Shown here: piece by piece, positions 32,791-64,000 of the stretch | Layout: every line of letters begins with the position of its first letter | Numbering within the stretch: the first letter of the stretch is position 1 | Origin: Desulfobacterales bacterium | GTDB taxonomy: Bacteria; Desulfobacterota; Desulfobacteria; Desulfobacterales; SURF-7 | Assembly (NCBI GenBank): GCA_028277765.1 | Contig: JANQFQ010000028.1 | Location: forward strand, 362 to 64,361 | Direction: 5' to 3' | Length of the DNA: 64,000 nt | The notes under the pieces: model-generated | The model's input: the letters and a program-made list of their open reading frames with translations, nothing else | What the model was told of the DNA's origin: nothing | Databases searched by the model: none | Position numbers and translations under genes: made by a program

Positions 32791-33990
32791 TTACAGCCTG
32801 CCAAAGATAGAGACAGACACAACACCTTTGGCTGGTTCGCCTCCCAGATTATGGGTCAGTCCAAGCTCCATATTCTTTACTTTACGCTCTTCAGGAATTC
32901 TGTCAAGAAGTTGTTCATAAACAGCGTAGACCATTCTCAAACCTGATGCCCCAATTGGATGACCGAAACATTTTAGCCCGCCGTCCACCTGGCAGGGAAC
33001 TTTGCCGTCAAGGTCATAAAAGCCGTCCATGATATCATCATACGCTTTTCCAAACGGTGATATAAAAAGGTCCTCCATGATGACAAATTCCGTAATAGAG
33101 AAGCAGTCGTGGACTTCCATCATACTGATTTCCGTCCTCGGGTCCTTAATACCAGCCTCTTCATAGGCTTTTTTCGCGGCTGTTTGGTTGGTGATCAGGT
33201 TCGCGCCATCCCAGGCAAAGGTCGTTTCCTGGCCTGAGGCCACGGAAATCTGGATCGCTTTAACAGTAACGATATCCTGGTTCGGTTTCAGGCTTTTGGC
33301 AATCTCCGGGGTTGTCACGATAGCGGCAGCCGCGCCGTCGCTGACACCACAACAGTCAAACAGCCCTAGTGGGTCGGCGATAATGGGCGAGTTTAATACC
33401 TGTTCCATGGTGACCGGCCTGCGGAGATGCGCCTTGGGGTTCATGGAACCGTTGGCATGGCTTTTTACAGAGATATGGGCCATGGCCTCTTTTACCTTGG
33501 GCATTTCAATCCCGTATTTTTTACAGTAAGCAGGGGCAAGTTGTGCGAACATGCCCGGGCCAGTGGCATCCGGATTTGCCAGGAGCGTATCTGTCCCGCC
33601 GCCGCCTGTTGGGAGGCCCGGGAAACCCGTGTCTTTTAGTTTCTCTGTACCGATGGCCAGGACCATGTCATAGGCACCTGCGGCAACAGCGTAACTCGCA
33701 GCCCTTAACGCCTCTGTTGCTGTGGCACAGTAGTTTTCTAGCCTTGTAACCGGGACATGGGGCAGTTTCAAGGCGTTGGCCAGATGTACGGCTGATTTGC
33801 CGATACCAACTTCATCATAACAGGATCCCATGTAGCAGGCCTGAATTTCTTTCTGTGCAATGCCGGCGTCTTCAAGGCATTCCTTATATGCTTCAATCGC
33901 AAGATCTTCACCGCTGCATTCCCAGCGTTCACCGAATCTTGTGCATCCCATACCTAATATAGCGACTTTATCTTTAATTCCATCAGCCAT
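32791..33990 (-). CDS. Thiolase (SCP2/archaeal-type acetyl-CoA acetyltransferase)
   Basis: ENYCAT catalytic Cys, EVHDCF, GHPIGASG. Confidence 0.9.
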   Translation of the reverse strand: MADGIKDKVAILGMGCTRFGERWECSGEDLAIEAYKECLEDAGIAQKEIQACYMGSCYDEVGIGKSAVHLANALKLPHVPVTRLENYCATATEALRAASYAVAAGAYDMVLAIGTEKLKDTGFPGLPTGGGGTDTLLANPDATGPGMFAQLAPAYCKKYGIEMPKVKEAMAHISVKSHANGSMNPKAHLRRPVTMEQVLNSPIIADPLGLFDCCGVSDGAAAAIVTTPEIAKSLKPNQDIVTVKAIQISVASGQETTFAWDGANLITNQTAAKKAYEEAGIKDPRTEISMMEVHDCFSITEFVIMEDLFISPFGKAYDDIMDGFYDLDGKVPCQVDGGLKCFGHPIGASGLRMVYAVYEQLLDRIPEERKVKNMELGLTHNLGGEPAKGVVSVSIFGRL

Positions 33991-35447
33991 TACGCCACCT
34001 CCTTTACCGGAACGCCTTTCCAGCAGTAACCGATGATGTCTCTCTGCTTATCATGGTATTTCCTGCGAAAGGTCATTGTTAACTTGGTTCCCTGAGCTAC
34101 CTCTTCCGGGGAGCAGTCTGTAATGTCGAGCATATTTCTGCCGCCGCCGTCAAATTCAACCCGCGCGTAGATAGCCGGCGGATCAAGAGTGGCCGCGAGC
34201 ATATCGTTTGTAAAGCTGGCGATAGTCCCGGTCTTATCTGCAAAACGGTAAGGTTCCGTCTGGTCGATGGCCCGACATTCGGGATTGGCGCATATCCGCT
34301 GGGGCGGATATTGGGGGGAATTACATGCTGTACATTTTGTGCCCCACATGCCCATGATCTGTTTCCGTTTTCGCCAGAGAGCTGAGAGTGCCGAGTAGTC
34401 AGTAACTTCACCGCGGAGCCCGATCTCTCCTTCGAGGGAGTCGCGCCATACAAGGAATTTCGTGTAATTATCAAGAGCGGCTTTGTTGGCCAGGCAGCCG
34501 GAGATACCCTTGGCTGGTTTGTAGTTCTTGATATTTTCAGTTACTTCAAAATACAGGGCATCGCATCCACTGCCGTAGCCTACAACAAGAAGCTTGTCGC
34601 CCGGCTCGGCGGTTTCAAGAGCTTGGGCGAGCATGACCAGCGGCTGGGCAGCACCGGCTTCTCCGATCTGATCCTGGAGATTGGGCTGGTCCTGTTCTGG
34701 TGTAACACCGAGTTTACCGCTTGTTTTTTTCCGTCCGCCCGCATTGCTGCATGCATAGATGACTTTGGAAAAGTCTTCCAGTTTCATGCTGTATTTGTCA
34801 AGCAGGCCATTGATTGATTCCATTATAAAATCGACATAGCCGAGATCACGGCACCATCTGTCTTCCCATTGGCGGTCATATTTTGTGTTCGCGCCGCGTA
34901 TATGATCCGGGAAGTCGTATGTTACTGAATAGGATCCTTTCAACTCGGCAATAACATCTGTGTCGCCCACAAGAAACGCCGCGGCAGCGTCACCGAATAT
35001 GATTTCTTGAGGTGATCCGGGCCGCCCCTGCCTTGTTTCAGCTGCAGTAACGACAATATTGTTTATCCTCTTAGACTCCACACCTTCAATGGCGGAGAGG
35101 AGTGCTGTTGTTCCAGCCTTCAGGCTTCCGCCGTAATCCGCGGACCTGATATTTTCATTTAAATTCATGGCCAGTGCTATTATCGCGGCGTTCTGCCGTT
35201 CAATATACGGCATGGTTGTGGATGCAAAATAGACACCTTCAACACTTGAAAGATCCTTGCCTGTAAGGGCATCCACGCCTGCGGCCATTCCCATTGTAAT
35301 GGGGTCTTCATCAAAATTTGCCACTGCTTTTTCACCCGCTGCATACATCATAATGATCGGGTTGATCCATGCCATGGCTCCGACGACTAAACCCCGGTTC
35401 ATGCGGTATCGCGGTACATATCCGCCATACGAACAGATTCCTGCCAT
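33990..35447 (-). CDS. HMG-CoA synthase-like domain fused to DUF35 (Zn-ribbon/OB-fold)
   Basis: GI.SYGGYVPRYR, EDPITM, GDAAAA, GYGSG; C-terminal CTAC...PPQRIC...C and OB fold. Confidence 0.85.
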   Translation of the reverse strand: MAGICSYGGYVPRYRMNRGLVVGAMAWINPIIMMYAAGEKAVANFDEDPITMGMAAGVDALTGKDLSSVEGVYFASTTMPYIERQNAAIIALAMNLNENIRSADYGGSLKAGTTALLSAIEGVESKRINNIVVTAAETRQGRPGSPQEIIFGDAAAAFLVGDTDVIAELKGSYSVTYDFPDHIRGANTKYDRQWEDRWCRDLGYVDFIMESINGLLDKYSMKLEDFSKVIYACSNAGGRKKTSGKLGVTPEQDQPNLQDQIGEAGAAQPLVMLAQALETAEPGDKLLVVGYGSGCDALYFEVTENIKNYKPAKGISGCLANKAALDNYTKFLVWRDSLEGEIGLRGEVTDYSALSALWRKRKQIMGMWGTKCTACNSPQYPPQRICANPECRAIDQTEPYRFADKTGTIASFTNDMLAATLDPPAIYARVEFDGGGRNMLDITDCSPEEVAQGTKLTMTFRRKYHDKQRDIIGYCWKGVPVKEVA

Positions 35448-35561
35448 GTTGCCTCCTTTTAAATATTAAATTATAAAATAAAACACCGCCGATGATAATC
35501 TTCTACCGGCGATGTTTGTGTATACATTTTTAAAAACGATAATTTTTGACTTCCTAAGTCA

Positions 35562-36692
35562 TTAAATTCCAATTTCAGCTTGAATTGTTTCAAGCTGTAC
35601 CGGGACTGTACCGAATTTAAGCTCAAAGTTTTTTGCCCTTGTAAAATACCAGTGAAGGTCATAATCAAGGTCCACACCTATACCGCCGTGTAGCTGTTGC
35701 GCGCTGAACGCAACCTCTCTGGCCGCGTTGTTTGTAATTACTTTTGCGATAGCGATTTCCTTTCTGCACGGCATCCCCTCTGAAAGCATCCATGCGGCCT
35801 GGTATGTTGTCCACCTCGCGCCCTGAACATGGATAAACATATCAGACACCCGGTGCTGTACAGTCTGGAAAGTGGCGATGGCACGCTTGAACTGGATCCT
35901 GGCTTTCGTATATTCAGCGGTCATTTCCAGCTCTTCCTGGGCGCCACCCACAGCTTCGGCGCACTGGATTGCGGTGGCCTTTTCAATAACGGATTTTACA
36001 AGAGAAAATCCTTTACCTACTTCACCAACCACATTATCGGCAGCCACGGTTACATTATCAAGATCGAGTTTAAACTGTCTTTCGCCGCCAATAACGGGCA
36101 TGGGGGTGAGTGTGACACCTTCCTCGCTGGGATCGATCATAACGATTGTAATGCCGTCTTCATCACCCGGAGAACCGTCTGTTCTGACACTTACGAGAAC
36201 CTTGTCCGCGATATTAGCATAGGGGACAAGGATCTTTGTCCCGGATAGAACATACCCGCCGTTTTTGCTTTCCGCTGTTGTCTCAATATAACTATGGTTG
36301 TAAGCAACACCAGGCTCATCATTTGCCATGGTCAGGATCATTTTACCGAGTCCAACTTTAGGAAGGATTTCTGATTTCTGATCTTCGGTTCCGCCTTCCA
36401 TCAAGGCGAATGTCCCCATCAGGTTACAGAGCATGGGGGAGTTAAACGCGGCCCTGCCTAATTCTTCAAACAGAACAGCCAGTTCAATAAATGACCAGCC
36501 GATGCCGTCGTAGTCTTCAGGGATGACGATGGCCATCCAGTCGAGCTTGGCCATACCCTTCCAGAGCTTTTTATCAAATCCGGTTTCGTTTTCAGAAAGC
36601 TCCTTGATAACGGCTTTGTCGACTTTTTTCTTGAGGAAATCCCGGGCTGCTTTCTGCAGCATTTCCTGCTCTTCATTAAATTTAAAATCCAT
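35562..36692 (-). CDS. Acyl-CoA dehydrogenase, FadE27/28-like subunit
   Basis: MDF.F.EEQ, R.QF.R.I..FQ.VQHR, QLHGGIG. Confidence 0.9.
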   Translation of the reverse strand: MDFKFNEEQEMLQKAARDFLKKKVDKAVIKELSENETGFDKKLWKGMAKLDWMAIVIPEDYDGIGWSFIELAVLFEELGRAAFNSPMLCNLMGTFALMEGGTEDQKSEILPKVGLGKMILTMANDEPGVAYNHSYIETTAESKNGGYVLSGTKILVPYANIADKVLVSVRTDGSPGDEDGITIVMIDPSEEGVTLTPMPVIGGERQFKLDLDNVTVAADNVVGEVGKGFSLVKSVIEKATAIQCAEAVGGAQEELEMTAEYTKARIQFKRAIATFQTVQHRVSDMFIHVQGARWTTYQAAWMLSEGMPCRKEIAIAKVITNNAAREVAFSAQQLHGGIGVDLDYDLHWYFTRAKNFELKFGTVPVQLETIQAEIGI

Positions 36693-36693
36693 A

Positions 36694-37113
36694 TTAATCC
36701 ACCTTTCTAAACTTTGGCAGGTTTAAATCATCTGTCAGGTTGTCAAAAACCACTTCAACCTGCATGCCAATTTTTATATCATCATTTTTGATATCTACCA
36801 TGTTGCTGATAAGTTTTAATCCTTCATCCAGCTCAACAAGCACTACGGTGAAAGGCGCTTTCATGCCCGGATGAGGGGATTTACGGTAGATGGTTTTACT
36901 GTAAATCGTCCCTTTGCCTGATGACGGTTCCCATTCAATATTCAGGGAACGGCATTTGGGGCATACTGGTCTCGGTGGATGTCTCAATCTGCCGCAATCA
37001 CCGCATTTTTGAAACACCAGTTCCTGATTTTGCACGGCATCCCAGAAGGCCTTGCTGTCCGGATCTACTACTGGTGCGGGTATCATTTCGTTTTTATTGT
37101 AGTTAACAGTCAT
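36694..37113 (-). CDS. DUF35 Zn-ribbon/OB-fold protein
   Basis: FW...QKCGDC...HPPRPVCPKC, G.GTIYS, VELDEG. Confidence 0.92.
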   Translation of the reverse strand: MTVNYNKNEMIPAPVVDPDSKAFWDAVQNQELVFQKCGDCGRLRHPPRPVCPKCRSLNIEWEPSSGKGTIYSKTIYRKSPHPGMKAPFTVVLVELDEGLKLISNMVDIKNDDIKIGMQVEVVFDNLTDDLNLPKFRKVD

Positions 37114-37116: not shown

Positions 37117-38286
37117 TTACCTCCCTAGAATAAGACCGCCCGCAGGCCCGCCAGCCCCGGTTGCAACCAGTCCAATTTTCGCATTCTTGACCTGAAGGGT
37201 CGCTGTGCCTCTAATCTGGTGTACAGCTTCAATAACATGGTTCATCCCGTGGATGTGTCCTTCACCCAGTGAACCGCCGGCTGTGTTGACCGGCAGCCTG
37301 CCACCGGCTTTTATCTTTTTCCCGTCCCCACAGAAATTTACGCCCTTCCCCTTTTTACAAAAACCGAGGGCTTCAAGCTGCATCGGCACAAGGGGTGTGT
37401 ACGCGTCATCAAGCTGGGCGAACTTGATGTCTTTTGGTTTTACACCTGCCATCTTAAATAGCCGTTTTCCCATCACAGCCATTTCAGGCAGTCCTGTTAC
37501 ATCATCCCGATAATAACCGCACATGTTCTCGGTTTCAGGTACACTCCCCTGGGCGGCGCCCAGTATCATCACTGGAGGATGATTCAGGTACTTAGCCCGT
37601 TCAGGAGTGGTAACGATGAATGCTGCCGCGGCATCGAATTTTTCATAACAGTCCAGAGCACGCAGGGGATCGGTAACCATTTTTGATTCTTTATAATCTT
37701 TCATGGTTATCGGTTTTTTAAAATACGCGCTGTTCGGATTTTTTGCGCCGTTCTGCCGGCAAGTGACAGTTATGGGCCCGAACTGGTCTTTCTTAATATC
37801 GTATTCATACATATATCTTTCAGCAAGCATGGCCACAGCTCCTTGCTCAGTCATCAGACCAAACGGGGAATGGAATGCCCAATGAAGCAGGTCTGCTGTG
37901 GAGAGTTGGCCGGAAGACCGCATGCTTGGTGTGGACCGCAACCCTGAGCCACCGTTTACCGCCCTATAAATAACAGCGGTGTGGCACGCGCCAGCGGCAA
38001 CGCCGGTGGCTGCCTGCATCACCATGCCGCACGGGGCACCTGCCCAACGTGTTTCTCCATAGAATGTAAGGTTGGGCATTCCCATGGCGCTTGTTATTGC
38101 ATGCTCATCTGCCGAGTCATCTGTCTGCTTGATCATGCCGTCAATATCTCTCGGTGTAAGTCCGGCATCATCCAGCGCGTCCTTTATAGCTTCGCAGGCC
38201 ATGCGGAGTTCTGTCTTTTTGCAATCTTTTGAAAAGCCGGAAAGCCCGATGCCTACTATTGCCACCTTGTTCTTAATACTCTTCAT
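37117..38286 (-). CDS. Ltp2-like thiolase-fold protein (divergent active site)
   Basis: AIVGIG...PVNTAGGSLGEGHIHG; LDDAY in place of YDxF. Confidence 0.85.
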   Translation of the reverse strand: MKSIKNKVAIVGIGLSGFSKDCKKTELRMACEAIKDALDDAGLTPRDIDGMIKQTDDSADEHAITSAMGMPNLTFYGETRWAGAPCGMVMQAATGVAAGACHTAVIYRAVNGGSGLRSTPSMRSSGQLSTADLLHWAFHSPFGLMTEQGAVAMLAERYMYEYDIKKDQFGPITVTCRQNGAKNPNSAYFKKPITMKDYKESKMVTDPLRALDCYEKFDAAAAFIVTTPERAKYLNHPPVMILGAAQGSVPETENMCGYYRDDVTGLPEMAVMGKRLFKMAGVKPKDIKFAQLDDAYTPLVPMQLEALGFCKKGKGVNFCGDGKKIKAGGRLPVNTAGGSLGEGHIHGMNHVIEAVHQIRGTATLQVKNAKIGLVATGAGGPAGGLILGR

Positions 38287-38733: not shown

Positions 38734-39960
38734 TTACCTCCTTAAAAGAATAGCGCTTGTTGGAACACCAAGTCCGCCGGTTACCAATGAAATTTCCACG
38801 TCATCCACCTGACCGGTTGATGTACCCCTAACCTGCCTGACCGCTTCATTGATCAGGTTCATTCCGTGAATGTATGCCTCTGACAGGTGGCCACCCGATG
38901 TGTTGCAGGGGAGTTCCCCGCCAATCCTGATTCGTTCGCCACCTTCACAAAAAAGCGCGCCTTCTCCTTCTTCCACAAAACCGTATTCTTCCATCTGCAT
39001 GGGGATAAGCGGTGAGAAAGCGTCATAAAATTGGGCAACATCCACATCTTTGGGGGTGACACCGGAGACGCGCCACAGTTCCTGGCCCGCATACCAGACC
39101 TCTGGGAGCAGGGATATTTTCGGCCGGTAAAGGCTGGTCATCATCTCGCCCTGCTCGGCAATCCCCTGTACCGCACCCATGATAACAGCGGGTGTCTGCT
39201 TAAGATCTTTTGCACGCTCCGTAGTGGTAACGATAATTGCACAGGCGCCGTCCGAATCAACACAGCAGTCATACAGCCGGAGCGGTTCAACGATCATCTT
39301 TGACGCCATATAGTCTTCAAGGGTGGCCGGCACGCCGTAGAACATGGCCTCTGGATTCATGCAGGCATGTTCCCTGAGGACAACAGATACCCAGCCGAGC
39401 TGTTCGGCAGTGACATTATAATCATGCATGTATCTGGTACCAAACAGAGCAACCCACGAAGGCGGCACAGCTAGCCCGTAAGGCATGATGTAGCCGTAAT
39501 GGTCGTTGGGAGCAGCCATGACCGTTTCCACGCCGGGTACGCGCCCATACCGCCTGCCCGAGCGTTCGTTCATGGCTCTATAGCACACAACGTACTTTGC
39601 CATGCCGGTGGCAACCGCTGCTGCCGCGTGAGAGATTGTGGAACAGCAGGCGCCGCCACCCCATCCGCATTCAGCAAAGAACGCCAGGTCTTTTATCCCT
39701 AAAGCGCTGACAAGATGCATCTCATCCGTGTAATCCATGGCAAACTTGACAAGGCCGTCGATCTGTTCCATCTTCAGCCCTGCATCCTCAACAGCGTCTA
39801 TAATCGCTTCACATGCCATCTGAAGTTCGCTTCGGCCCGAGTTTTTTGAAAATTCGGTGGCGCCGATGCCAGCAATCGCTGTCTTATCTTTTATCAGATA
39901 AGCTGACGGATCCGGCCTGCCGAATTTTTGATATCTTCTTGAAAGATACTGGTCGAACAC
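38734..39960 (-). CDS. Ltp2-like steroid side-chain aldolase (lipid-transfer protein family)
   Basis: AGIGATEFSKNSGRSEL, YRAMNERSG.R, YDAF, EAYIHG; lacks the thiolase GHP motif. Confidence 0.88.
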   Translation of the reverse strand: MFDQYLSRRYQKFGRPDPSAYLIKDKTAIAGIGATEFSKNSGRSELQMACEAIIDAVEDAGLKMEQIDGLVKFAMDYTDEMHLVSALGIKDLAFFAECGWGGGACCSTISHAAAAVATGMAKYVVCYRAMNERSGRRYGRVPGVETVMAAPNDHYGYIMPYGLAVPPSWVALFGTRYMHDYNVTAEQLGWVSVVLREHACMNPEAMFYGVPATLEDYMASKMIVEPLRLYDCCVDSDGACAIIVTTTERAKDLKQTPAVIMGAVQGIAEQGEMMTSLYRPKISLLPEVWYAGQELWRVSGVTPKDVDVAQFYDAFSPLIPMQMEEYGFVEEGEGALFCEGGERIRIGGELPCNTSGGHLSEAYIHGMNLINEAVRQVRGTSTGQVDDVEISLVTGGLGVPTSAILLRR

Positions 39961-40488: not shown

Positions 40489-40998
40489 TTAATTAGGTCT
40501 GAATTTGAAAATTGTAAATGGCTGTTTGCAGACCACTTCATCCTTCTGGTTGGAATAAGTATACACAACGGTCAGGAAATACCCCTGGCCGAGACGTGTT
40601 TTCTTTAACGGTGACGCAGTGATGAACGTCAGCGTGTATTTCAGCTTATCACCCGGACGCATTGGTTTGAAATATTCCTGGGATGTGGTTGTTGCCACCA
40701 CATATGGGTAACCTGCTTCTCCCATAATCTCCGTCAGTATCTCCAAGGTGTGCGGCTCACGGTCTTCTGGCGGCCACAGCCGGGGGACACAATACGCCTG
40801 CGCCATCGTCGGCGGCGCGATGATACCTTTATATTTGCTATTTTTCGCGTACTCTTCATCCGTGTAAAGAGGGTTGCCGTCCTGCATTGCTTCACTCCAG
40901 TGGCGGATCATCGGTTCATTAACCTCATCGTTTGCAGGATAAGGACCGGTTACCTGGCCGATCATGGACTGAAGTTTATCATATAGATCATCACTCAT
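40489..40998 (-). CDS. MaoC-like hydratase subunit (ChsH2 N-terminal-like)
   Basis: VNEPMIRHW.EAM.D.NP.Y, APPTM, K.T.LG.GYF. Confidence 0.87.
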   Translation of the reverse strand: MSDDLYDKLQSMIGQVTGPYPANDEVNEPMIRHWSEAMQDGNPLYTDEEYAKNSKYKGIIAPPTMAQAYCVPRLWPPEDREPHTLEILTEIMGEAGYPYVVATTTSQEYFKPMRPGDKLKYTLTFITASPLKKTRLGQGYFLTVVYTYSNQKDEVVCKQPFTIFKFRPN

Positions 40999-42193: not shown

Positions 42194-42830
42194 TATAATA
42201 CTCCCTGTTGGTTACTGGTTTTTGGGCTGTTTTGGGCTGCTGCTCATAAGGCATTGCCAAAAAACCTTGAAATTATAGATAGATATTAATGCCTATTGAT
42301 AATATTAATATTTATTAAAAATTCTTTCTAACCATGCTAATTGAGTTAAGTATTACATACTTGAATGTTGGGCTAAGATAACTGGTTCAGGAAACGCCAA
42401 AGTTTCAGCCAACCTGTCACAGACTGCGCCTCATAAAAATAACATTTAATATCAAGCAGATAGGAAGAAAAATTCATAAGCCAAGTACATTGCAATACAG
42501 AAAACTCAACAATTATTAATATTGTACACCCTAAAAAAATAGAATGTATTACTTACTTGTTTTAACGTTTTTGTCAAGCAATTTTTAAGTTTTCCCATGA
42601 TCGTTGCTTCAAAGCGATCTCGTTGCATATATCTGATTTTTTTGAACATATAAAAAATATAAATATCTTGATAAAAATTCTATAATTGGGTATGTAAAAA
42701 ATTTCAAATTTATAAGCGGTTTAGGATGACCCTGGGTAATAAGTTTATAGTGTTAAATCAGTTAATTATATTTATTCAATAATCATAAGGAAAGGCTGCT
42801 GTGTCGTCTTTCCGGAACGAGGAGGAATGT

Positions 42831-43589: not shown

Positions 43590-43590
43590 G

Positions 43591-48877: not shown

Positions 48878-49327
48878 ATGCCGCAAGTTGAATATAAAAA
48901 TATTGTAAACGCGCCAATGGACGCAGTCTGGTCCTATGTGAGCGTTATTGATAAATGGGCGCCTTTTCTTAAAGGTTATGTAAAGCATGAGGAGCTGAAC
49001 GACAAGGAGTCGATCTGGACCCTTAAAGGTGATGTGGGGGTGCTCTGTCGTGTGGTTGAAATGAAAGTAAACATTACGGACTGGGATGATGACGCGAAAA
49101 AAGTCGCTTTTGAAATCGAAGGGATCAATGAAAAAGCGACTGGTGGCGGCACATTCATCGCCGTGTCACAGTCAGACAATGAAACAGAACTCACATTTAT
49201 TCTTGAAATCAATGCCGGGGGGATGATCGGCCCGGTTGTCAATGTACTTATGAAACCGATGCTTAAGCCTGTGGCTGCTGAAATGGCTAATAAGATTAAA
49301 GATGCCATAGAGAAAGAACAGGCATAG
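48878..49327 (+). CDS. SRPBCC/CoxG (START-fold) ligand-binding protein
   Basis: VNAP...VW.YV....W...L.GY pattern, 149 aa. Confidence 0.8.
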   Translation: MPQVEYKNIVNAPMDAVWSYVSVIDKWAPFLKGYVKHEELNDKESIWTLKGDVGVLCRVVEMKVNITDWDDDAKKVAFEIEGINEKATGGGTFIAVSQSDNETELTFILEINAGGMIGPVVNVLMKPMLKPVAAEMANKIKDAIEKEQA

Positions 49328-55555: not shown

Positions 55556-55930
55556 ATGGAAGAGATAAAAAAAGTAGAGCGCAGGCAAAATAAACGTTTT
55601 CAGGCAAATGAAGGTCTCTTTATCGTAACAGAGCCTTATACCTCTGTTCATGGAAGGATAATTGATATAAGCAAAGGGGGGCTTGCTTTTCAGTATATTG
55701 AAAGCAGGGACCGGCCGGATAAGCGTTTTAAATTAAGTATATTTTTAAAAAAACATGGATTTTTGATTGAAAATGTGAATGTAGAAACTGTTTCAGACAT
55801 TGAAATAACATATTTTTCTCAGATCACTTTTTTAAGTCTAAGGCGGTGTGGGGTTCGGTTTGTCGGACTGAAAAAGAAACAGGTTTTACAGCTTGAGAAT
55901 ATTATAGAATTCCATACAACCGAAGAATAA
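55556..55930 (+). CDS. PilZ-domain protein
   Basis: RRQNKR and DISKGG motifs. Confidence 0.88.
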   Translation: MEEIKKVERRQNKRFQANEGLFIVTEPYTSVHGRIIDISKGGLAFQYIESRDRPDKRFKLSIFLKKHGFLIENVNVETVSDIEITYFSQITFLSLRRCGVRFVGLKKKQVLQLENIIEFHTTEE

Positions 55931-56014
55931 AGATAATAGAAGTATAGTAAAAGCTAATATGACTTTTTTTAAATACTAGTGCGGGCGGGGACATTCCAAA
56001 AAGGAGGAATAAAA

Positions 56015-58105
56015 TTGAAAAAACTAAAAAAACTGCTTGAACCGCTTGATATTGCCGGGATCAAGTTTAAAAACCGTATGTTCAAAGCAGCATCCGGCTC
56101 CAGGATGTTTTTCGAGAATGACGGGTTTGTTAATGAAAGAGGGAAACGGTGGTATGAAGCCCTGGCCAAGGGGGGTGTCGGGTGTGTTATTGTTGAATCC
56201 CCTGCCATTGATGAGCCGTTAAGTCTTAAAAAACCTGGGGATTTCCGCCTTGATGATGACAAGTACATTCCGGGGATGAAGGACCTGGTTGATACCATTC
56301 ATAAGCATGACTGCCCAGCAATCCTGCAACTCTACCATGCAGGCCCATGGCACCAGAGAGAAGAATCCGGCCTGACACCGGTCTCTGCGTCGCCTCACGG
56401 CGAACCGGAATTCAAGGGACATGAAACACTCGCGCCGTGCGAGGAATTGACCATAGAAAAGATTAAAGAGATTGAGGAGCAGTTTATCAGCGCTGCAGTA
56501 AGAGGGAAAGAAGCTGGATTTGACGGTGTGGAGGTAAATGCCGGCGGTAATCACTTGCTGTCCACCTTTATGTCCCGGTATTGGAACTACAGGCATGATG
56601 AATACGGCTGTGACACCATGGAAAACCGGGCACGGATTGTTGTAAATATAATTGAAGGTATCAAAGAACGGTGTGGACAGGATTATCCTGTGCCGGTTCT
56701 TTTTAACGGACTTGAACTGGCTATGGGTGAGCTCGGGCAGACCATTGAAGAATCCCAGGATTTCACGAAAATATTTGAGGAGGCAGGTGCGGATGCTTTT
56801 CATATAAGGGTTTTTGAGCTTGATAACTGCGCGTGCTACTGGCCGGAGTTTAACTACTATCCCCAGGCAAGAAATCCTATGCCGGAGGGGATGGATTGGA
56901 GCCATAAGGGTGCAGGTTCATTTACCCCTGCTGCGTACGCTATTAAACAGGTGACATCAAAGCCGGTGCTTACAGTAGGTCGTTGGGACTACAGCCTTGA
57001 ATTCGCAGAGGAGAGTCTGGAAAAAGGGCATGTGGACGGCATCGGTTTGGTTAGGGGCCTTCAGGCGGATACAGAACTTCCAAACAAAATCGTTGAAGGG
57101 CGGATAGATGATATTGTGCCGTGTACGTCATGTATGACATGCATTGAAGGACACCAGTTCCCCATACCGCCTCCGATTAAATGCAGGATAAACGCGTTTC
57201 TAGGAACAGAGCTTGACTATTGGAGCTATCCTCCCATTGAGAAGAAAAAGAAAGTCTTGGTGGCAGGGGGTGGATCTGCCGGTCTTGAGGCTGCCAGGGT
57301 TGCTGCGATAAGGGGGCATGATGTAACCCTCTATTCACAGGACAGCTACCTAGGCGGCCTGATGAATATGGCTGCTGTTATCAAGGGCAACTATCCTGAA
57401 GATATGGAGAAGATAATAGATTACTATAAAATTCAGCTCAAGAAGCTGGGTGTAAAGATCAAGAAAGGTAAGGAAGTTACGCAAAAGGTTATTGAAAAGT
57501 TAAAACCAGATGTGTTGATTATCGCCACAGGCGGACATGCAACAGATTCGGTGCTTCCCGGCAGTGACAACAAGAAAGTGGTGGATGCCAATGTGCTCCG
57601 TTCCCAGCTTGGTCTTGCCCTAAAGGTGTCCAGTCCCAGCAAGTTGAGCAAAGCGACAAAATTATGGATGCCTATTGGCAAAAAAGTGGTAGTTATGGGC
57701 GGGGATATAAAAGGCGCTCAGCTTGCTGAGTTCCTGGTAAAAAGGGGGAAGCAAGTGACGATCGTCTGGGAAGGTGACCTGATGGCATTTGGTGACGGAA
57801 TGAACCTGATGAATGTTTACCTGCTTGGGCTCTGGCTTACGGAAAAAGGCGCAGTAATGATACCTGAAGTCAAATACGAGGAGATTAATGACGAGGGATT
57901 GGTGATTACAACACCGGACGGGAATAGACAGACCCTTGAAGCTGATTCTATTGTGCCGGTCCTACCGCTCAAGAAAAATGATGATCTTTATGATGCCGCA
58001 CAGGGAATGGTCCCGGAGATCTATAAAATCGGCGCCTGCAAGGATCCGAATGAACTGATCGTACACGCGGTTGCCGAAGGTGCTGAGGTGGCGTACGAGA
58101 TCTAA
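56015..58105 (+). CDS. Old yellow enzyme / 2,4-dienoyl-CoA-reductase-like Fe-S flavoenzyme (BaiCD/H architecture)
   Basis: KNR, AKGGVG, AGFDGVE, DEYG...ENRAR, CTSCMTC...C Fe-S motif, GGGSAGLE; GGAGG RBS before TTG 56015. Confidence 0.9.
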   Translation: MKKLKKLLEPLDIAGIKFKNRMFKAASGSRMFFENDGFVNERGKRWYEALAKGGVGCVIVESPAIDEPLSLKKPGDFRLDDDKYIPGMKDLVDTIHKHDCPAILQLYHAGPWHQREESGLTPVSASPHGEPEFKGHETLAPCEELTIEKIKEIEEQFISAAVRGKEAGFDGVEVNAGGNHLLSTFMSRYWNYRHDEYGCDTMENRARIVVNIIEGIKERCGQDYPVPVLFNGLELAMGELGQTIEESQDFTKIFEEAGADAFHIRVFELDNCACYWPEFNYYPQARNPMPEGMDWSHKGAGSFTPAAYAIKQVTSKPVLTVGRWDYSLEFAEESLEKGHVDGIGLVRGLQADTELPNKIVEGRIDDIVPCTSCMTCIEGHQFPIPPPIKCRINAFLGTELDYWSYPPIEKKKKVLVAGGGSAGLEAARVAAIRGHDVTLYSQDSYLGGLMNMAAVIKGNYPEDMEKIIDYYKIQLKKLGVKIKKGKEVTQKVIEKLKPDVLIIATGGHATDSVLPGSDNKKVVDANVLRSQLGLALKVSSPSKLSKATKLWMPIGKKVVVMGGDIKGAQLAEFLVKRGKQVTIVWEGDLMAFGDGMNLMNVYLLGLWLTEKGAVMIPEVKYEEINDEGLVITTPDGNRQTLEADSIVPVLPLKKNDDLYDAAQGMVPEIYKIGACKDPNELIVHAVAEGAEVAYEI

Positions 58106-58493: not shown

Positions 58494-59066
58494 ATGAGAA
58501 CCAAGGATGATATTAAGCAGGAAGCTTTGTTTCAGGCGACAGTCAAACTGGTTAATGACATTGGATTTGTTTCCAGTTCAGTGGCTAAAATCGCGAAAGA
58601 GGCCGATGTTTCACCAGCAACCATCTATGTATATTATAAGAATAAAGAAGATCTGCTGGTGTCAACCTATATTGATATTAAGCAGAAGTTCAGCAAAGCG
58701 GTGCTGAAAAATTTTGGTGAGGATCTGCCCATCAGGGATGTCTTGAGAAATATATGGTACAGTATGTTTAGATACGCATCTAAGTTTCCGGAATATTTTA
58801 AGTTTACTGAACAATTCGCTGCTTCGCCATATGATTCGTTGGTCAATAAGGAAGAAGTTGAAAAGTATTTTGATCCCATGGTGAATTTGATGCAGATAGG
58901 GATTGAACAGAAGATTATTAAAGATGTAAATGTGGACCTGCTCATGGCATTCATGTTTTACCCGATCATGGGGCTTTCAAACGCGCGGTCGTGTAAGAAC
59001 TTTGAGATTAATGATGATAATATCGAGACCGCTTTTACAATGGCCTGGGATGCCATAAAGCTATAA
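58494..59066 (+). CDS. TetR/AcrR regulator
   Basis: IAKEADVSPATIYVYYKNKEDL HTH. Confidence 0.95.
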   Translation: MRTKDDIKQEALFQATVKLVNDIGFVSSSVAKIAKEADVSPATIYVYYKNKEDLLVSTYIDIKQKFSKAVLKNFGEDLPIRDVLRNIWYSMFRYASKFPEYFKFTEQFAASPYDSLVNKEEVEKYFDPMVNLMQIGIEQKIIKDVNVDLLMAFMFYPIMGLSNARSCKNFEINDDNIETAFTMAWDAIKL

Positions 59067-59202: not shown

Positions 59203-60684
59203 ATGAGTGACGAAGTTTATGACTTAATAGCAGTAGGGGCAGGTGGCGCTGGGCTGGCCGCGGCAGTAACCGTTGCAGAAGGCGGAGGAAAAGCTTTAAT
59301 CCTTGACAGACTCGGGGTTACAGGCGGAGCAAGTGTATTCGCGAAAGGGTTATTTGCCACTCAAAGCCACATTCAGAAGCAAGAAGGTGTTGAAACCGAT
59401 CCGGATGAAATATTTCTTCAGCACATGGAATACACACACTATCTTTCAAATGCCAGGCTTGTTCGGGCGATTATCGACAAATCCGCTGATACCATCAAAT
59501 GGATTGAAGACAGGGGCGCGGTCATTCTAGGTGTTCCCCCGCTCTATCCCGGAGCCCCCCAGACATGGCATACAACAAAACAGGAAGGTAAGGGAATAAC
59601 AAAGGCGCTTACGGCAACAGCAAAAGACCTGGGCATACCCATCCAACTCAAGACAAGAGCCAGAAAACTGATCATAGAAGACGGTAAAGTAGCCGGCGTT
59701 ATCTGTGACGATAAACAAGGGAACACCTTAACATTCCGCTCGAAAACTGTTGTGATCGCTTCAGGCGGTTTTGCGAACAACTTTGATATGATGCGTAAAT
59801 ATACAAATTGCGGTGAGCCCACAGTACAAATGGCTTTCGGGCAGGTCGGCAAGGAAGGCGACGGTGTAAAAATGGCATGGGAAGCAGGTGCCGCTGAAGA
59901 AGGTGTCAGCGTCATCCAGCGCGGCCTTGCGGGTGTGCTGAAGAAAAAAGAGGTCCTGAAAGAAGCGCCTAAAAAGAGCCAGTTCGATAAGTACATTACA
60001 GCCATCCTGAAACAGCCAACCTTCTGGGTTAACGCGAACGGCGAACGTTTCTTCAATGAATCAGAATTCTCTTTCGCGCATATCGGCAACGCCATGTCCA
60101 AACAGCCTTTTCAGATCCTGTTTAACATGTTTGATGATGACTACAGGAAACTGATGGAAGAAGAAGGTATCCAGGTGGGGCTGGGCGTGTTTGCGCCTAC
60201 CGGGACAAAAGTGCCGGATGTCAAAGATGCCCTGCAGGCAAGCATGGACAAGGATGAAGCGTGGATATGCGACACTATTGAAGAGCTGGCAGAAAAAACA
60301 GGCCAGAATCTTGAAGTATTAAAAACTAATATTGATGAGTATAATGAATCCTGTGATAAGGGGCGTGACGCGCTTTTCGCAAAAAACCCGGATTTTATGA
60401 GGCCGTTCAGGACACCGCCTTTTTATGCGATCAAGGGACATCCGACCCATGTTGGATCTCTCGGCGGCATTAAAATCAACCATAAGTGCGAAGTCATCAA
60501 AAAGAGCAGCAAGACATTCCTGGATGTGATCCCGGGGCTGTACGCAGCAGGGAATGTGGCCGGCGGCATGTACAGTGATTCATATGATGCTTCTCATACA
60601 CTCGGCCTGACACTCGCTTTTGCTTATAATTCAGGTCGTATCGCGGGTGAGGAAGCGCTAAAGTATGTTGGTATAGACGAGTAG
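59203..60684 (+). CDS. FAD-binding oxidoreductase (fumarate reductase/flavocytochrome c superfamily)
   Basis: GAGGAG, IASGGF, GDG, VN.NGERF.NE, LGGIKIN, GLYAAG, SGRIAG. Confidence 0.88.
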   Translation: MSDEVYDLIAVGAGGAGLAAAVTVAEGGGKALILDRLGVTGGASVFAKGLFATQSHIQKQEGVETDPDEIFLQHMEYTHYLSNARLVRAIIDKSADTIKWIEDRGAVILGVPPLYPGAPQTWHTTKQEGKGITKALTATAKDLGIPIQLKTRARKLIIEDGKVAGVICDDKQGNTLTFRSKTVVIASGGFANNFDMMRKYTNCGEPTVQMAFGQVGKEGDGVKMAWEAGAAEEGVSVIQRGLAGVLKKKEVLKEAPKKSQFDKYITAILKQPTFWVNANGERFFNESEFSFAHIGNAMSKQPFQILFNMFDDDYRKLMEEEGIQVGLGVFAPTGTKVPDVKDALQASMDKDEAWICDTIEELAEKTGQNLEVLKTNIDEYNESCDKGRDALFAKNPDFMRPFRTPPFYAIKGHPTHVGSLGGIKINHKCEVIKKSSKTFLDVIPGLYAAGNVAGGMYSDSYDASHTLGLTLAFAYNSGRIAGEEALKYVGIDE

Positions 60685-60711: not shown

Positions 60712-60742
60712 AAGGGGCTGGCCGTTTTTGGCCGGCCCTTTT
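60712..60742 (+). terminator. Rho-independent terminator
   Basis: AAGGGGCTGGCC-gttttt-GGCCGGCCCTTTT. Confidence 0.75.
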
Positions 60743-61688: not shown

Positions 61689-62555
61689 ATGTGTGAAGCA
61701 TGTTTAAGACACGGGACAGCAGGTAAGTGGTATTTGAACGCTGAAAATTATTCCAATGAGATAGTCGAGAAATATAACCTTCGTGATTTTCTCATGGAGC
61801 AGTACCTTAATTTTGAGCAGATGTCTGTGAGGAAGGTGGGCGGCATGAATGCGGTGGGGCTTGGGTATAAGCTCCAGATGCCTCTCATCGGAAAAGTGGT
61901 CAAGCATTTTGCTGAAAATGTAGTCCACAGTCAAAGGCCGCCGAAAAACCCCCTACAGGCTGAAGGCCACATCGGACAGGTTATACCGCTTGATGACGGC
62001 ATCGCAATCCTTGAGACTTGTGCTGCTGAACCGATTATCCTGAAGAACTGCATGTGCCGGTATATGTCACGAGGTATAAAAGAGGCCTGCTGCATCAATT
62101 TTGGTGTGATGTCTGAAATCGTTGACAAGCTCCCGCGGTTTATTCCTGATGATGATAAATATTTCCTGACCCGTGAGCAGGCAATTGAAAAACTGGCCGA
62201 GTTTAACAAAAAAGGGTATATCGGTTCCATCTGGTATGCTCCTTATCCATATATTAACAACCTTTGTTCGTGCGCTAACCCTGAATGCGCGGGGCTAAGG
62301 CCGCGGGTCGATTTTGACATGAAATCCGTTTACAAGTCTGAATATATCATAGAGACACAGCATGATAACTGTAAGGGGTGTAAGAAATGCGTGGCCATGT
62401 GCCAGTTCAAGGCTATTTCATATAATATCACCATAAAAAAAGCGGTCATTGACCGTGCAAAATGTTTTGGCTGCGGTGTATGTATTCACGCGTGTAAAAA
62501 TGAAGCGCTTTATTTGCGGCCAAGGGATGAGGTGCCGAGGTATAAGGAAAGATAA
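61689..62555 (+). CDS. 4Fe-4S dicluster protein
   Basis: MCEAC..HG...KWYL, CMCR, NLCSC...C, CKGCKKC...C and CFGCGVC...C. Confidence 0.88.
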   Translation: MCEACLRHGTAGKWYLNAENYSNEIVEKYNLRDFLMEQYLNFEQMSVRKVGGMNAVGLGYKLQMPLIGKVVKHFAENVVHSQRPPKNPLQAEGHIGQVIPLDDGIAILETCAAEPIILKNCMCRYMSRGIKEACCINFGVMSEIVDKLPRFIPDDDKYFLTREQAIEKLAEFNKKGYIGSIWYAPYPYINNLCSCANPECAGLRPRVDFDMKSVYKSEYIIETQHDNCKGCKKCVAMCQFKAISYNITIKKAVIDRAKCFGCGVCIHACKNEALYLRPRDEVPRYKER

Positions 62556-62796: not shown

Positions 62797-62854
62797 CGAT
62801 GGTTTTTTTGCAAACACTTCACTCATCAGCTAAAACAGGCAAAAGAGAAATAGT

Positions 62855-63112
62855 ATGGCCTCAAAAACAAAGATTACCATTGATCATTCAATATGCAGCG
62901 GCGGGAAAAAGGTAGATCCCAGGGCATGCTGCAAGTGTATGCAGATATGTGAACCCGCGGTTTTTCTTCTTCACCAGACCCTGGATGCGGAAGAAGAGAA
63001 CCCCTATGATCCCCAGTTGTGGAGTATTACACCCCTTTGGCTCTCCCTCTGCACGCGTTGTATGAAGTGTGTTGACGTGTGTCCGGAGAGGGCGGTCCGT
63101 GTTAGTTGGTAA
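62855..63112 (+). CDS. Small ferredoxin-like protein
   Basis: C...CCKCMQIC and CTRCMKCVDVCP. Confidence 0.8.
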   Translation: MASKTKITIDHSICSGGKKVDPRACCKCMQICEPAVFLLHQTLDAEEENPYDPQLWSITPLWLSLCTRCMKCVDVCPERAVRVSW

Positions 63113-64000
63113 AAAAATAGTTTTTAAAATACGCTATCGTCCTATTCCTTGCCTCTTCTTCAGAATAGACAGGACGGTAACCGAGACCTTTTACGGCTTT
63201 ATCACCTTTAAAATAGAAATCTTTGCAAGTCATGAGGACGCTTACCCTTGTAATCGCGGGATGAAATTTGAAAAAGGGCCTGCAGATAAACGCTGTGAGT
63301 TCGAGAAACGCGCCTATGGCGTATACCAAGGGAAAGGGGAGACTGCGGTTTTTGGGTGGAAGCGGATATCCCAGTTCCGTCATGATTGGGTCAAGAAATT
63401 CAAAAAAGTTTGAGGGTGGCGCATCTGTTATAAGATATGTCTGGCCGGGAACAGTAGTGTCTTGCTCAAGCAGTTTTTTTGCGGCAAGGATGTGGCCGTG
63501 TGCTACATTGCCAACGTACACATGCTGAAATACTGCTTTGCCGTTGCCGATCCTGAAAGGCATTTTCCCTTTTTTTACAAGGTTCAGTGTTTCGGTTATG
63601 TGGTAAGGATCAGCTTCGCCGTACATCCCGCAGGGGCGGATCACGGCTGTAAGGAGGCGCGGATCATCCTCTCCATCACACGCGGCCCTTTTTGAGTTGT
63701 TTGCCTTTAGAACTGCCTGTTCAGCTACTGCCTTTGTTCTGGCATAATCGAGTGTAAAGTTTTCAGGATACGGCAGGGTTTCATCCCCATCAATGATAGG
63801 TGTTCCGTCATAAACGACATCCATTGTACTTGTGGCTACAAGCGCTTTTACGCCCGTTTCTTTGCAGGCCCTGATGACGTTTTCTGTTCCAGTGATATTC
63901 ACTGAATCAAGGACTTCTTTTGGGCACAGACCCCAGTCGACAATAGCAGCTGCATGTATAACAATATCCACTCCTTCAAACGCTCTAAGCACTTCATCAT
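63102..64000 (-). CDS. 3beta-hydroxysteroid dehydrogenase/isomerase-family SDR; N-terminus beyond the window
   Basis: VIHAAA, VNITGT.NV..AC, GDETLPY, YARTKA.AE, IRPCGMYG. Confidence 0.88.
   Translation of the reverse strand, partial: DEVLRAFEGVDIVIHAAAIVDWGLCPKEVLDSVNITGTENVIRACKETGVKALVATSTMDVVYDGTPIIDGDETLPYPENFTLDYARTKAVAEQAVLKANNSKRAACDGEDDPRLLTAVIRPCGMYGEADPYHITETLNLVKKGKMPFRIGNGKAVFQHVYVGNVAHGHILAAKKLLEQDTTVPGQTYLITDAPPSNFFEFLDPIMTELGYPLPPKNRSLPFPLVYAIGAFLELTAFICRPFFKFHPAITRVSVLMTCKDFYFKGDKAVKGLGYRPVYSEEEARNRTIAYFKNYFFTN

Follow-up and report, generated by a model that had tools for sequence, protein, structure and literature searches.

Can a sulfate-reducing bacterium convert steroids into estrogens without oxygen? 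This question is raised by a gene island at positions 32791-64000 of a 64,000-nucleotide stretch of DNA (hereafter the window) from a Desulfobacterales bacterium (GenBank assembly GCA_028277765.1, contig JANQFQ010000028.1, which we label C13). An initial annotation, made from the letters alone, had called the region a putative anaerobic steroid-catabolism island. We find that the island is real and coherent, and that its strongest steroid marker is a corrinoid methyltransferase system spanning 46527-52892. The three components of this system, a corrinoid protein (CoP), an MtmB-family protein (MT1) and a pterin-binding methyltransferase (MT2), were not listed in the initial annotation, nor were four regulators (LuxR, response-regulator-PAS-LuxR, PilZ and TetR). 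From homology and gene context we lean towards a pathway in which side-chain cleavage would yield androgens, delta-1 dehydrogenation would follow, and cobalamin-dependent C-19 demethylation would form estrogens, the methyl group being oxidised at the expense of sulfate. A steroid substrate is likely, because four proteins have steroid enzymes as clearly their best solved relatives and because a cobalamin system resembling AbeABC lies in the same cluster.

We took open reading frames (ORFs) from 30000-64000 and searched 29 proteins against Pfam and 27 against NCBIfam; all 27 ORFs submitted from 32791-64000 had a Pfam family. MT1 (449 aa; 49381..50730, plus strand) is a pyrrolysine-free MtmB-family methyltransferase of the AbeA/EmtA lineage (PF05369, 1.4e-43). 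The match covers residues 5-446, a full-length MtmB fold with no in-frame stop codon, and the pyrrolysine position of MtmB1 (1l2q) lies opposite a gap of MT1, in GRPGMNM-GLL. PylB had no match above cut-off in the genome (130 bits vs 348), leaving pyrrolysine use unsupported. CoP, which is AbeB-like (212 aa; 46527..47165, plus strand), contains PF02310 and PF02607 and carries the motif D98-x-H100-x-x-G103. MT2, a predicted methyl-tetrahydrofolate:corrinoid methyltransferase of AbeC-like type (275 aa; 52065..52892, plus strand), scores 289 bits with NF005719, above the cut-off of 259.

Pairwise BLASTP related each of these proteins to the abe cluster of Phosphitispora sp. TUW77. MT1 is 45% identical to AbeA over 458 aligned columns (E 2e-134), CoP is 57% identical to the corrinoid protein of that cluster over 211 aa, and MT2 is 42% identical to its pterin-binding gene product over 266 aa. 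TUW77, a fermenting member of the Peptococcaceae, is the only characterised anaerobic estrogen maker, and AbeABC-like systems are so far known only from steroid C-19 methyl transfer. According to the available text of PMC11912376, published in 2025, AbeA (~50 kDa) demethylates 1-dehydrotestosterone at C-19, AbeB (~23 kDa) serves as corrinoid protein, and AbeC (~28 kDa) hands the methyl group to tetrahydrofolate, from which it enters the oxidative Wood-Ljungdahl pathway; the lengths of MT1, CoP and MT2 fit these masses. The same text names four abeA genes in TUW77, states that a 3-oxosteroid 1-dehydrogenase supplies the AbeA substrate there, and notes homologues of AbeABC in metagenome-assembled genomes (MAGs) from marine sediment. 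By Pfam, the TUW77 cluster comprises two short-chain dehydrogenase/reductase (SDR) genes followed by pterin-binding, B12-binding, MtmB, old yellow enzyme (OYE)+Pyr_redox and electron-transfer flavoprotein (ETF) genes, and a second TUW77 locus comprises SRPBCC, FAD_binding_2, a 178-aa ORF and MtmB. Both loci echo the run of KstD-like, CoxG and MT1 genes in the window and the OYE gene downstream of it.

MT1 has many relatives. A word-indexed search scored 8000 candidates and found 308 at E <= 0.001, the best 120 of which consisted of the window's own protein and 119 others that were 54-84% identical. Few of the relatives listed carried a name, which was 'monomethylamine:corrinoid methyltransferase' of Chloroflexi, Dehalococcoidia and Deltaproteobacteria MAGs. 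When 50%-identity representatives were searched exhaustively, 585 relatives reached E <= 0.001, and 65 of these reached E <= 1e-30.

The host was confirmed to be a Desulfobacterales sulfate reducer with a Wood-Ljungdahl pathway, as its genome encodes dsrAB, a CODH/ACS cluster, MTHFR and FTHFS. The dsrA gene scores 619 bits against a cut-off of 393 and a dsrB-like gene adjoins it, which bears out the earlier supposition of a probable sulfate reducer. Contig C82 carries consecutive genes for RACo, the corrinoid Fe-S protein small subunit, carbon monoxide dehydrogenase (CODH), acetyl-CoA synthase (ACS), the large subunit and AcsE; methylenetetrahydrofolate reductase (MTHFR) has 3 matches in the genome and formate-tetrahydrofolate ligase (FTHFS) one strong match. 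The window sits on a 68,696-bp contig of a 4.89-Mb assembly, and the best named relatives of an EpmA gene on this contig (4566-5486) are Desulfobacterales MAG proteins at 60-66% identity. Further EpmA relatives come from Desulfonema magnum (63%), a Desulfococcaceae bacterium (62%) and one 'Pseudomonadota' MAG (62%), with none above 67%.

These features bear on the direction of methyl transfer. The available text of PMC11912376 separates the demethylating Abe systems from the Emt systems, which methylate estrogens to androgens, by the presence of MT2 and the Wood-Ljungdahl pathway, and the Emt hosts, which are denitrifiers, are said there to be without either. Since the cluster includes MT2 and the genome encodes the Wood-Ljungdahl pathway, the window's system would be classed as Abe type by that criterion, though its MT1 is not an AbeA orthologue. 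Four features expected of a demethylating system were found: a CoP with the DxHxxG motif in the MT1 cluster, an MT2 in the same cluster, the Wood-Ljungdahl pathway in the genome and a KstD-like gene.

Upstream of the corrinoid cluster, ten genes on the minus strand (32791-42193) form a side-chain operon; the remaining genes of the island lie mostly on the plus strand. Three proteins of this operon were compared, by sequence, with solved structures, and each had steroid enzymes as its best relatives. The 391-aa acyl-CoA dehydrogenase (ACAD) of ChsE type (41018..42193) scored 296 bits with 4x28_A and 286 bits with 6wy8_B, against 138 bits for the best generic ACAD. The sole solved relatives of the 169-aa FAS1_DH hotdog hydratase subunit (ChsH1-like; 40489..40998) were 4w78 'Hydratase ChsH1' and 4wnb 'Hydratase ChsH2' (E 1.4e-21). 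For the 408-aa Ltp2-like steroid side-chain aldolase (38734..39960), which also exceeds the NF005892 cut-off (540.7 bits vs 469), the best relative was 6ok1_A 'Lipid-transfer protein' (E 1.4e-129, 436 bits), with the runner-up at 187 bits. We take 6ok1 to be the Ltp2-ChsH2(DUF35) aldolase complex of Thermomonospora curvata, 4w78/4wnb and 4x28 to be the ChsH1-ChsH2 hydratase and the ChsE4-ChsE5 dehydrogenase, both of M. tuberculosis, and 6wy8 to be a T. curvata steroid ACAD.

The other operon genes surround these three. A 145-aa MaoC-type hotdog hydratase subunit (ChsH2-like; PF01575; 40033..40470) lies between the 169-aa subunit and the aldolase, which is followed by a 142-aa DUF35 protein (PF01796, PF12172; 38300..38728). 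Next come a second Ltp-type protein with an SCP-x thiolase fold (389 aa; 37117..38286), which is 43% identical to its 408-aa paralogue and scores 438 bits with the lipid-transfer protein model NF005892, below the cut-off of 469, and a second DUF35 protein (139 aa; 36694..37113; PF01796 3e-18, PF12172 5.5e-15) with a zinc ribbon and OB fold of the ChsH2 C-terminal type. A 376-aa ACAD (35562..36692; Pfam ACAD N, M and C domains) scores below cut-off with the NCBIfam models pimD_small (191.6 bits) and IpdE2 (155 bits); it is likely the second subunit of a ChsE-type heteromeric ACAD, presumably paired with the product of 41018-42193. The operon closes with an HMG-CoA-synthase-like protein carrying a C-terminal DUF35/OB domain (485 aa; 33990..35447; NF003274 219 bits, below the cut-off of 244; PF01796 at residues 403-461) and a thiolase-fold protein (399 aa; 32791..33990; NF004810 623.6 bits vs 403; Thiolase_C_1 and Thiolase_N). 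ChsE, ChsH1-ChsH2 and Ltp2-DUF35 types are thus all present in a single operon, as in an igr-type module, which converts 3-oxo-pregn-4-ene-20-carboxyl-CoA to androstenedione by releasing the last propionyl-CoA unit. Models for the benzylsuccinate enzymes BbsA and BbsB scored far below cut-off (44.5 bits vs 250 and 138 bits vs 750, respectively). Given these low scores and the wide margins by which steroid enzymes are the best solved relatives, the assignment of the operon as igr-like is well supported at the level of homology.

The corrinoid cluster also contains a 547-aa flavoprotein resembling 3-oxosteroid delta-1-dehydrogenase (KstD-like; 47222..48865, plus strand), encoded two genes upstream of MT1, between the CoP and SRPBCC genes. 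Its best solved relative is 7p18_A '3-oxosteroid 1-dehydrogenase' (E 1.7e-100, 340 bits), followed by three KstD entries, the top one being 4c3x at 215 bits. Tyr124, Tyr355, Tyr523 and Gly527 align with Tyr118, Tyr363, Tyr536 and Gly540 of 7p18, which we take to be the catalytic residues of KstD.

Reading the substrate, the direction of methyl transfer and each reaction from these homologies and neighbourhoods, we propose the following route. The ACAD pair, the ChsH1/ChsH2-type hydratase and the Ltp2-type aldolase with free-standing DUF35 partners would cut the last three-carbon piece of the side chain as propionyl-CoA, giving a 17-keto C19 androgen. The KstD-like flavoprotein would then add the 1,2 double bond, producing a 1,4-dien-3-one, from which MT1 would transfer the C-19 angular methyl group to the cob(I)alamin of the neighbouring CoP, so that ring A becomes aromatic and an estrogen is formed. 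MT2 would hand the methyl group to tetrahydrofolate for oxidation by the Wood-Ljungdahl pathway, the electrons going to sulfate. Probable roles for the SRPBCC protein, the SDRs and the OYE enzyme are to carry and trim substrates, for instance at the 3- and 17-hydroxyl/keto groups or by ene reduction.

The gene content listed by the initial annotation is present at 32791-64000 (igr-like operon, CoA-transferase, three PF01073 proteins, KstD-like protein, OYE, second FAD_binding_2 protein and START-like protein), and no oxygenase family occurs among the 27 Pfam-searched proteins, as it had said. Its attribution of nearly every enzyme to steroid families holds for the Ltp2, ChsH, ChsE-type ACAD and KstD-like proteins, whose best solved relatives are steroid enzymes, but not for the CoA-transferase, the 493-aa flavoprotein and the OYE enzyme, which are generic. 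The term 'catabolism island' overstates the case: nothing in the island points to ring breakdown, the genes fit a partial conversion, and PF02738, the family of the AtcA-type molybdenum hydroxylase, had 0 matches in the 91.8%-complete genome.

We built two quick maximum-likelihood trees (LG+G4) of MT1, with 110 and 99 rows. In the first, five TUW77 copies, the five MT1 paralogues of the window's genome and homologues from MAGs form one clade of 76 of the 110 rows, with a support of 100 in the Shimodaira-Hasegawa-like approximate likelihood ratio test (SH-aLRT). The same lineage makes up 78 of the 99 rows of the second tree, again with SH-aLRT 100, and includes the Emt-context protein described below; it is separate from more distant MtmB-family representatives. 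Within the lineage, the sister of the window's MT1 is a protein from a Desulfobacteraceae MAG (78% identity), and a protein from a Fibrobacterota MAG branches next to these two. The AbeA subclade (9 rows, SH-aLRT 99) does not include the window's MT1 and is sister to the other 67 rows.

Scanning species-representative genomes with a 14-sequence MT1 alignment yielded 69 loci, four of which lie on the TUW77 chromosome and each encode an MT1 that shares 45% identity with the window's across residues 1-448. To represent EmtA, we searched 401 genomes from the family of a MAG titled Steroidobacteraceae, 6 of which had a match, and used one closed 3.47-Mb genome. Its locus, identified as Emt-type by gene context alone, has on one strand a luciferase-like oxidoreductase, a 102-aa ORF, a corrinoid protein and the MtmB-family gene, and on the divergent strand TetR, a 2Fe-2S ferredoxin, RACo, a 244-aa ORF and S-adenosylmethionine (SAM) synthetase; MT2 is absent. 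This arrangement fits the emtABCD genes and neighbours described in the available text of 10.1101/714501, which reports them also in Steroidobacter denitrificans. The window's MT1 and CoP are 55% and 59% identical, respectively, to those of the Emt-type locus.

The clades of the second tree differ in what surrounds the MT1 gene. Fifteen rows, the Emt-context protein among them but not the window's MT1, form a clade (SH-aLRT 100) in which neither MT2 nor a KstD-like gene is nearby at any of 12 loci, 6 of which have at least 8.4 kb on both sides. In the window's own three-row clade, both other loci have MT2 and both have a KstD-like gene. MT2 and KstD-like genes occur at 8 and 11 of 23 loci in a Dehalococcoidia-rich clade, at 8 and 1 of 11 loci in a Pseudomonadales-rich clade, and at 4 and 0 of 5 loci in the AbeA clade. 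Counting neighbours that resemble window genes over all 69 loci, we found CoP at 41, MT2 at 24, KstD-like at 18, OYE at 17, CoxG at 11 and Ltp2 at 2; among the 37 loci flanked by 5 kb or more on each side, these numbers were CoP 25, MT2 16, KstD-like 9, OYE 12 and CoxG 8. The steroid-type association across the lineage is real but far from universal. In one MT1 subclade from Pseudomonadales/Cellvibrionales MAGs (L065-L074 and L086 in our locus numbering), CoP and MT2 are nearby and the substrate may differ; the one such locus searched with Pfam, L072, has TetR, RACo, CoP, MT1 and MT2 without a steroid-type neighbour.

The linkage of side-chain and methyl-transfer genes is not confined to the window. 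An 11.3-kb contig of a Fibrobacterota MAG (L019) carries twelve same-strand genes in the order ChsH1-type hotdog, 141-aa ORF, 190-aa ORF, DUF35, Ltp2, DUF35, Ltp, CoP, MT2, KstD, CoxG and MT1. For ten of the twelve, the island has a matching protein, at 43-83% identity (44% and 47% for the DUF35 pair); the 141-aa and 190-aa ORFs have no Pfam family, and the latter has no island match. This correspondence indicates that side-chain cleavage and methyl transfer genes have been inherited together in two phyla. Near-synteny at such identities in another phylum, together with an island GC content above the genome mean (0.46-0.51 over 32-40 kb vs 0.418), suggests that the whole module (36694-52892, compared with L019) was horizontally transferred. 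On a contig from a Steroidobacteraceae MAG, too, an MT1 fragment adjoins genes for ChsH-DUF35, Ltp2 and ACAD.

The genome holds five MT1 genes, with the other copies 54-56% identical to the window's by tblastn, and four of the five lie directly beside a FAD_binding_2/KstD-type gene. The copy at C147:21902-23230 (L007) is beside two such genes, that at C96:26928-28268 (L008) is beside one and an extended SDR, and that at C74:824-2155 (L009) is beside one that is cut at the contig start. The fifth, at C92:7259-8581 (L010), is beside a classical SDR and near sulfatase-TPR, Memo-like and CobW proteins. At C147, HGD-D genes lie downstream of the MT1 paralogue; we dropped a ring-reducing enzyme as a candidate there, as no BcrAD-type ATPase genes follow them at this locus. 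The next-best homologues in the genome are only 38-40% identical for CoP and 32-33% identical for MT2, and so the five MT1 proteins probably share one CoP and one MT2. Each of the distant CoP and MT2 homologues at C48:30076-30678 and C79:58362-59147 has one TAG inside the matched frame.

Other steroid-type genes are scattered through the assembly. Eight KstD-like paralogues share 33% identity or more across no less than 60% of the query. One at C61:40492-44038 (L092:10492-14038), 60% identical to the window's, lies beside FAD_binding_2, SnoaL-like and FGE-sulfatase (sulfatase-maturing) genes, a neighbourhood that is perhaps a sign that steroid sulfates are used. Another Ltp2+DUF35 pair (50% identity) lies at C24:3060-4689 (L093), and C24:28001-43580 (L094) holds a beta-oxidation cluster with an SCP-x-type thiolase, an HMG-CoA-synthase-like ORF, a CoA-transferase and two BcrAD/BadFG-type ATPases. 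The region C128:24001-44000 (L095) encodes another ChsE-like ACAD pair (52% and 48% identity to that of the island), which lies with three genes of the NMO family, two for family III CoA-transferases, one for an enoyl-CoA hydratase, two ETF pairs and one gene for a MerR-TetR fusion regulator; we take this set to resemble those for steroid C- and D-ring (HIP) degradation. Fusion regulators of this kind (MerR_1+TetR_N, 281-292 aa) lie beside KstD-like or ACAD clusters at L008:8085-8963, L095:12378-13223 and L098:6820-7692 (on C96, C128 and C88), and may be a paralogous family of pathway regulators.

Several observations weigh against our reading of the island as an estrogen-forming pathway. Judged by a shared subclade, orthology of MT1 to AbeA was not found, and MT1 is nearer to the Emt-type MT1 than to AbeA (55% vs 45%); for both reasons, phylogeny alone gives no direction of transfer. 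Both trees were built without the characterised EmtA of Denitratisoma, which the pattern scan did not retrieve. The island has no RACo gene, with three RACo-type activators encoded elsewhere in the genome. The KstD-like protein is below the NCBIfam cut-offs (NF009478 451 bits vs 789; NF005882 436 vs 788), and the 4-oxocyclohexanecarboxylate dehydrogenase model gives it 446 bits, about equal to the KstD models. The sparseness of KstD-like (18 of 69) and Ltp2-like (2 of 69) neighbours means that some members of the lineage may use other substrates. Estrogen may not be the end product, given the C128 gene set that could degrade C and D rings. Finally, the genome is an incomplete bin of 156 contigs, 91.8% complete and 1.74% contaminated.

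We considered whether the same machinery might run in reverse, as in Emt, with methyl-tetrahydrofolate donating, by way of MT2 and CoP, a methyl group that turns estrogens into androsta-1,4-diene-type androgens, which are then degraded. Corrinoid methyl transfer is reversible in principle, the closeness of MT1 to the Emt-type MT1 fits this direction, and the C128 genes (ChsE-like ACAD pair, NMO, family III CoA-transferase, enoyl-CoA hydratase and ETF) could serve later ring degradation. However, the window's MT1 lies outside the fully supported Emt-context clade, in which MT2 is absent from all 12 loci, and the luciferase-like, small hypothetical, RACo and SAM-synthetase genes of the Emt-type locus are all missing from the island. 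The linkage to androgen-producing side-chain genes fits the forward direction better. In addition, the known anaerobic route through ring A (the 2,3-seco pathway) needs AtcABC, a xanthine-oxidase-family molybdenum hydroxylase, and the missing PF02738 match argues further against a strategy of methylating and then degrading, within the completeness of the genome. We regard the reverse direction as quite unlikely.

The substrate might instead not be a steroid at all, the operon acting on another branched or alicyclic acyl-CoA and the corrinoid system demethylating some other cyclic enone or terpenoid. All assignments are by homology, and the near-equal scores of the KstD-like protein with the 4-oxocyclohexanecarboxylate 2-dehydrogenase and KstD models (446 and 451 bits, all below cut-off) would suit such a substrate. 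So would the OYE enzyme, whose best solved relative is 'NCR', which we take to be an aryl-CoA reductase, the generic CoA-transferase and 493-aa flavoprotein, and the existence of whole MT1 subclades without steroid-type neighbours, such as the Pseudomonadales-rich clade with a KstD-like gene at 1 of 11 loci. Against this stand four independent proteins with steroid enzymes as their best solved relatives by wide margins, the low BbsA and BbsB scores, and the characterised members of the MT1 lineage, all of which act on steroids in the available texts of PMC11912376 and 10.1101/714501. A non-steroid substrate is therefore, in our view, unlikely. More doubtful still is that the island helps a sulfate reducer to mineralise steroids completely without oxygen, by a ring-opening route as yet undescribed. 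The eight KstD-like paralogues, the second Ltp2+DUF35 pair on C24 and the C128 set would fit such a role, but no ring-cleaving enzyme family is recognisable in the island by Pfam or NCBIfam, and the genome has no match to an AtcA-type enzyme. We conclude that partial conversion of steroids to estrogens is somewhat favoured by the evidence as a whole.

The remaining genes of the island are less specific. CoA-transferase class I subunits A (262 aa) and B (227 aa) are encoded at 42801..44274 on the plus strand and exceed the cut-offs of TIGR02429 and TIGR02428. Judged by its best solved relatives, which are of ScoA/AtoD type, the enzyme is of the generic 3-oxoacid type, and we rejected an identity as IpdAB on the same grounds. 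It is followed on this strand by an extended SDR of the 3beta-HSD/epimerase family (335 aa; 44282..45289; PF01073 3.6e-21, PF01370) and a LuxR-type regulator (306 aa; 45436..46356; PF00196 at residues 245-292) whose N-terminal part has no family assignment. The CoxG/SRPBCC protein, which is START-like (149 aa; 48878..49327, plus strand; PF06240, PF10604), had no significant solved relative by sequence (best E 0.17); a homologue lies beside a KstD-like gene in 11 of the 69 related loci, one of them in TUW77, and the protein is a possible carrier of hydrophobic ligands. Between MT1 and MT2 lies a second extended SDR (326 aa; 51032..52012, plus strand; PF01370, PF01073 4.5e-17), a 56%-identical paralogue of which adjoins the MT1 paralogue on C96.

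Downstream of MT2, the plus strand encodes a response regulator with PAS domains and a LuxR output domain by Pfam (652 aa; 53331..55289) and a PilZ-domain protein (124 aa; 55556..55930; PF07238); a small PilZ gene also directly follows the MT1 paralogue on C74 (L009:2440-2832). The OYE+Pyr_redox_2 flavoenzyme (708 aa; 55979..58105, plus strand), with OYE and FAD/NAD-binding domains of the FadH/BaiCD/NCR family by Pfam, is below every NCBIfam cut-off; its best solved relative is 6qkg 'NCR' (278 bits) and it is also near 2,4-dienoyl-CoA reductase. OYE-family genes occur in 17 of the 69 loci, 3 of which are TUW77 abe clusters. A TetR-family regulator by Pfam (190 aa; 58494..59066, plus strand) precedes the 493-aa FAD_binding_2 flavoprotein (59203..60684, plus strand), whose membership of the island is uncertain. 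The latter is of generic fumarate/urocanate-reductase type, and we rejected a steroid-specific identity for it (75 bits with 4at0 vs 128 bits with fumarate reductases). A terminator-like hairpin follows its gene at 60712-60741. The last two genes encode a 288-aa protein with a C-terminal 2x[4Fe-4S] domain (61689..62555, plus strand) and, on the minus strand, a 3beta-HSD family SDR that is cut by the window end (63102..64000; PF01073 1.4e-58 for the in-window part and 6.5e-69 at full length). The latter is 375 aa long on the contig, where its end would fall at window coordinate 64229, and after it come a 149-aa glyoxalase/dioxygenase-superfamily protein and a 776-aa ORF without a Pfam family (L006:4559-8185).

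The initial 30 kb of the window contain genes for housekeeping, chemotaxis and two-component systems, among them a chemotaxis/two-component block at 13958-29348 upstream of the island (two CheR, CheA, CheW, CheB, CheD, a methyl-accepting chemotaxis protein, STAS, hybrid kinases and an HD-domain response regulator) that has no evident link to it. The two Pfam-searched proteins outside the region are a DnaJ-domain protein (30482-31294) and one without a family (32092-32436). The window has no tRNA genes, and hence none marking an island border, and no Rfam matches, and hence no cobalamin riboswitch; matches to a sigma-70-like promoter numbered 42, not above the 38.1 +/- 6.9 found in shuffles.

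What is new in these findings is that the host is a sulfate reducer of the Desulfobacterales, that the system is physically joined to an igr-like side-chain operon, that five MT1 genes, four of them next to a KstD-type gene, probably share one CoP and one MT2, and that gene context separates Abe-type from Emt-type clades. Searches for literature on sulfate reduction together with steroid degradation or estrogenesis, in sources that covered a minority of subscription journals, returned none tying steroid genes to sulfate reducers. Formation of estrogens without oxygen has so far been shown in one bacterium, TUW77; the island offers a concrete, testable gene set for steroid conversion under sulfate reduction, in which the androgen-making step is joined to the estrogen-making one. 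The contrast between MT2-bearing clades and the MT2-less Emt-context clade also provides a rough genomic guide for distinguishing estrogen makers from consumers. Our results suggest marine sulfate reducers as a potential source of estrogens in anoxic settings, those associated with animals included. The only public sequencing run found to contain the stretch is labelled 'coral metagenome' and is possibly the source of the assembly; no RNA sequencing run containing the stretch was listed. We tentatively raise the possibility, which we think has a minor chance of being right, that this sulfate reducer lives partly by stripping steroids instead of breaking them down and excretes estrogens as waste, its five MT1 proteins aromatising several steroid classes through the shared CoP and MT2, and that it is a source of estrogen relevant to corals. 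If true, this would provide an aromatase-independent origin for the estrogens and the 'aromatase activity' reported in corals, in whose genomes, by the available text of PMC13739741, the vertebrate enzymes that complete estrogen and androgen synthesis have no clear orthologues.

How does the island compare with known systems? Like the igr operon of M. tuberculosis and the ChsH-Ltp2 system of T. curvata, it has two ACAD genes, two hotdog hydratase genes, an Ltp2-type aldolase and DUF35. Unlike them, it has DUF35 as free-standing proteins in two copies, each with its own Ltp paralogue, lacks cyp125 or any other oxygenase, has an HMG-CoA-synthase-like OB fusion and a thiolase appended, and resides in a strict anaerobe. 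The KstD-like protein resembles AcmB/KstD (7p18, 4c3x) in its 340-bit match to 7p18 and the four active-site residues it keeps, but differs in scoring below the equivalog cut-offs and in being encoded between a corrinoid protein and an SRPBCC protein. With EmtABCD of Denitratisoma spp. and Steroidobacter denitrificans, the system shares the MT1 lineage and the type of corrinoid protein. The Emt-type locus, however, has luciferase-like (EmtD-like), small hypothetical (EmtC-like), RACo and SAM-synthetase genes and no MT2, whereas the window has MT2 and none of these genes, and so does not belong with EmtABCD.

The system also resembles AbeABC of TUW77. Both systems combine an MtmB-family MT1, a corrinoid protein and a methyl-tetrahydrofolate MT2 (45%, 57% and 42% identity, respectively), both lie in hosts with a Wood-Ljungdahl pathway, and both hosts have several MT1 copies (five here; four abeA genes named in the available text of PMC11912376). 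An OYE-type flavoenzyme adjoins the TUW77 cluster, and a cassette of SRPBCC, FAD_binding_2 and MtmB genes is also found in TUW77, although the FAD_binding_2 gene there is only 25% identical to the window's KstD-like protein. The two differ in that the window's MT1 lies outside the AbeA subclade, that its host is a Desulfobacterales sulfate reducer rather than a fermenting member of the Peptococcaceae, and that its genome has one CoP and one MT2 for five MT1 genes. In the window, moreover, the cluster is linked to an igr-like side-chain operon and an AcmB-type KstD.

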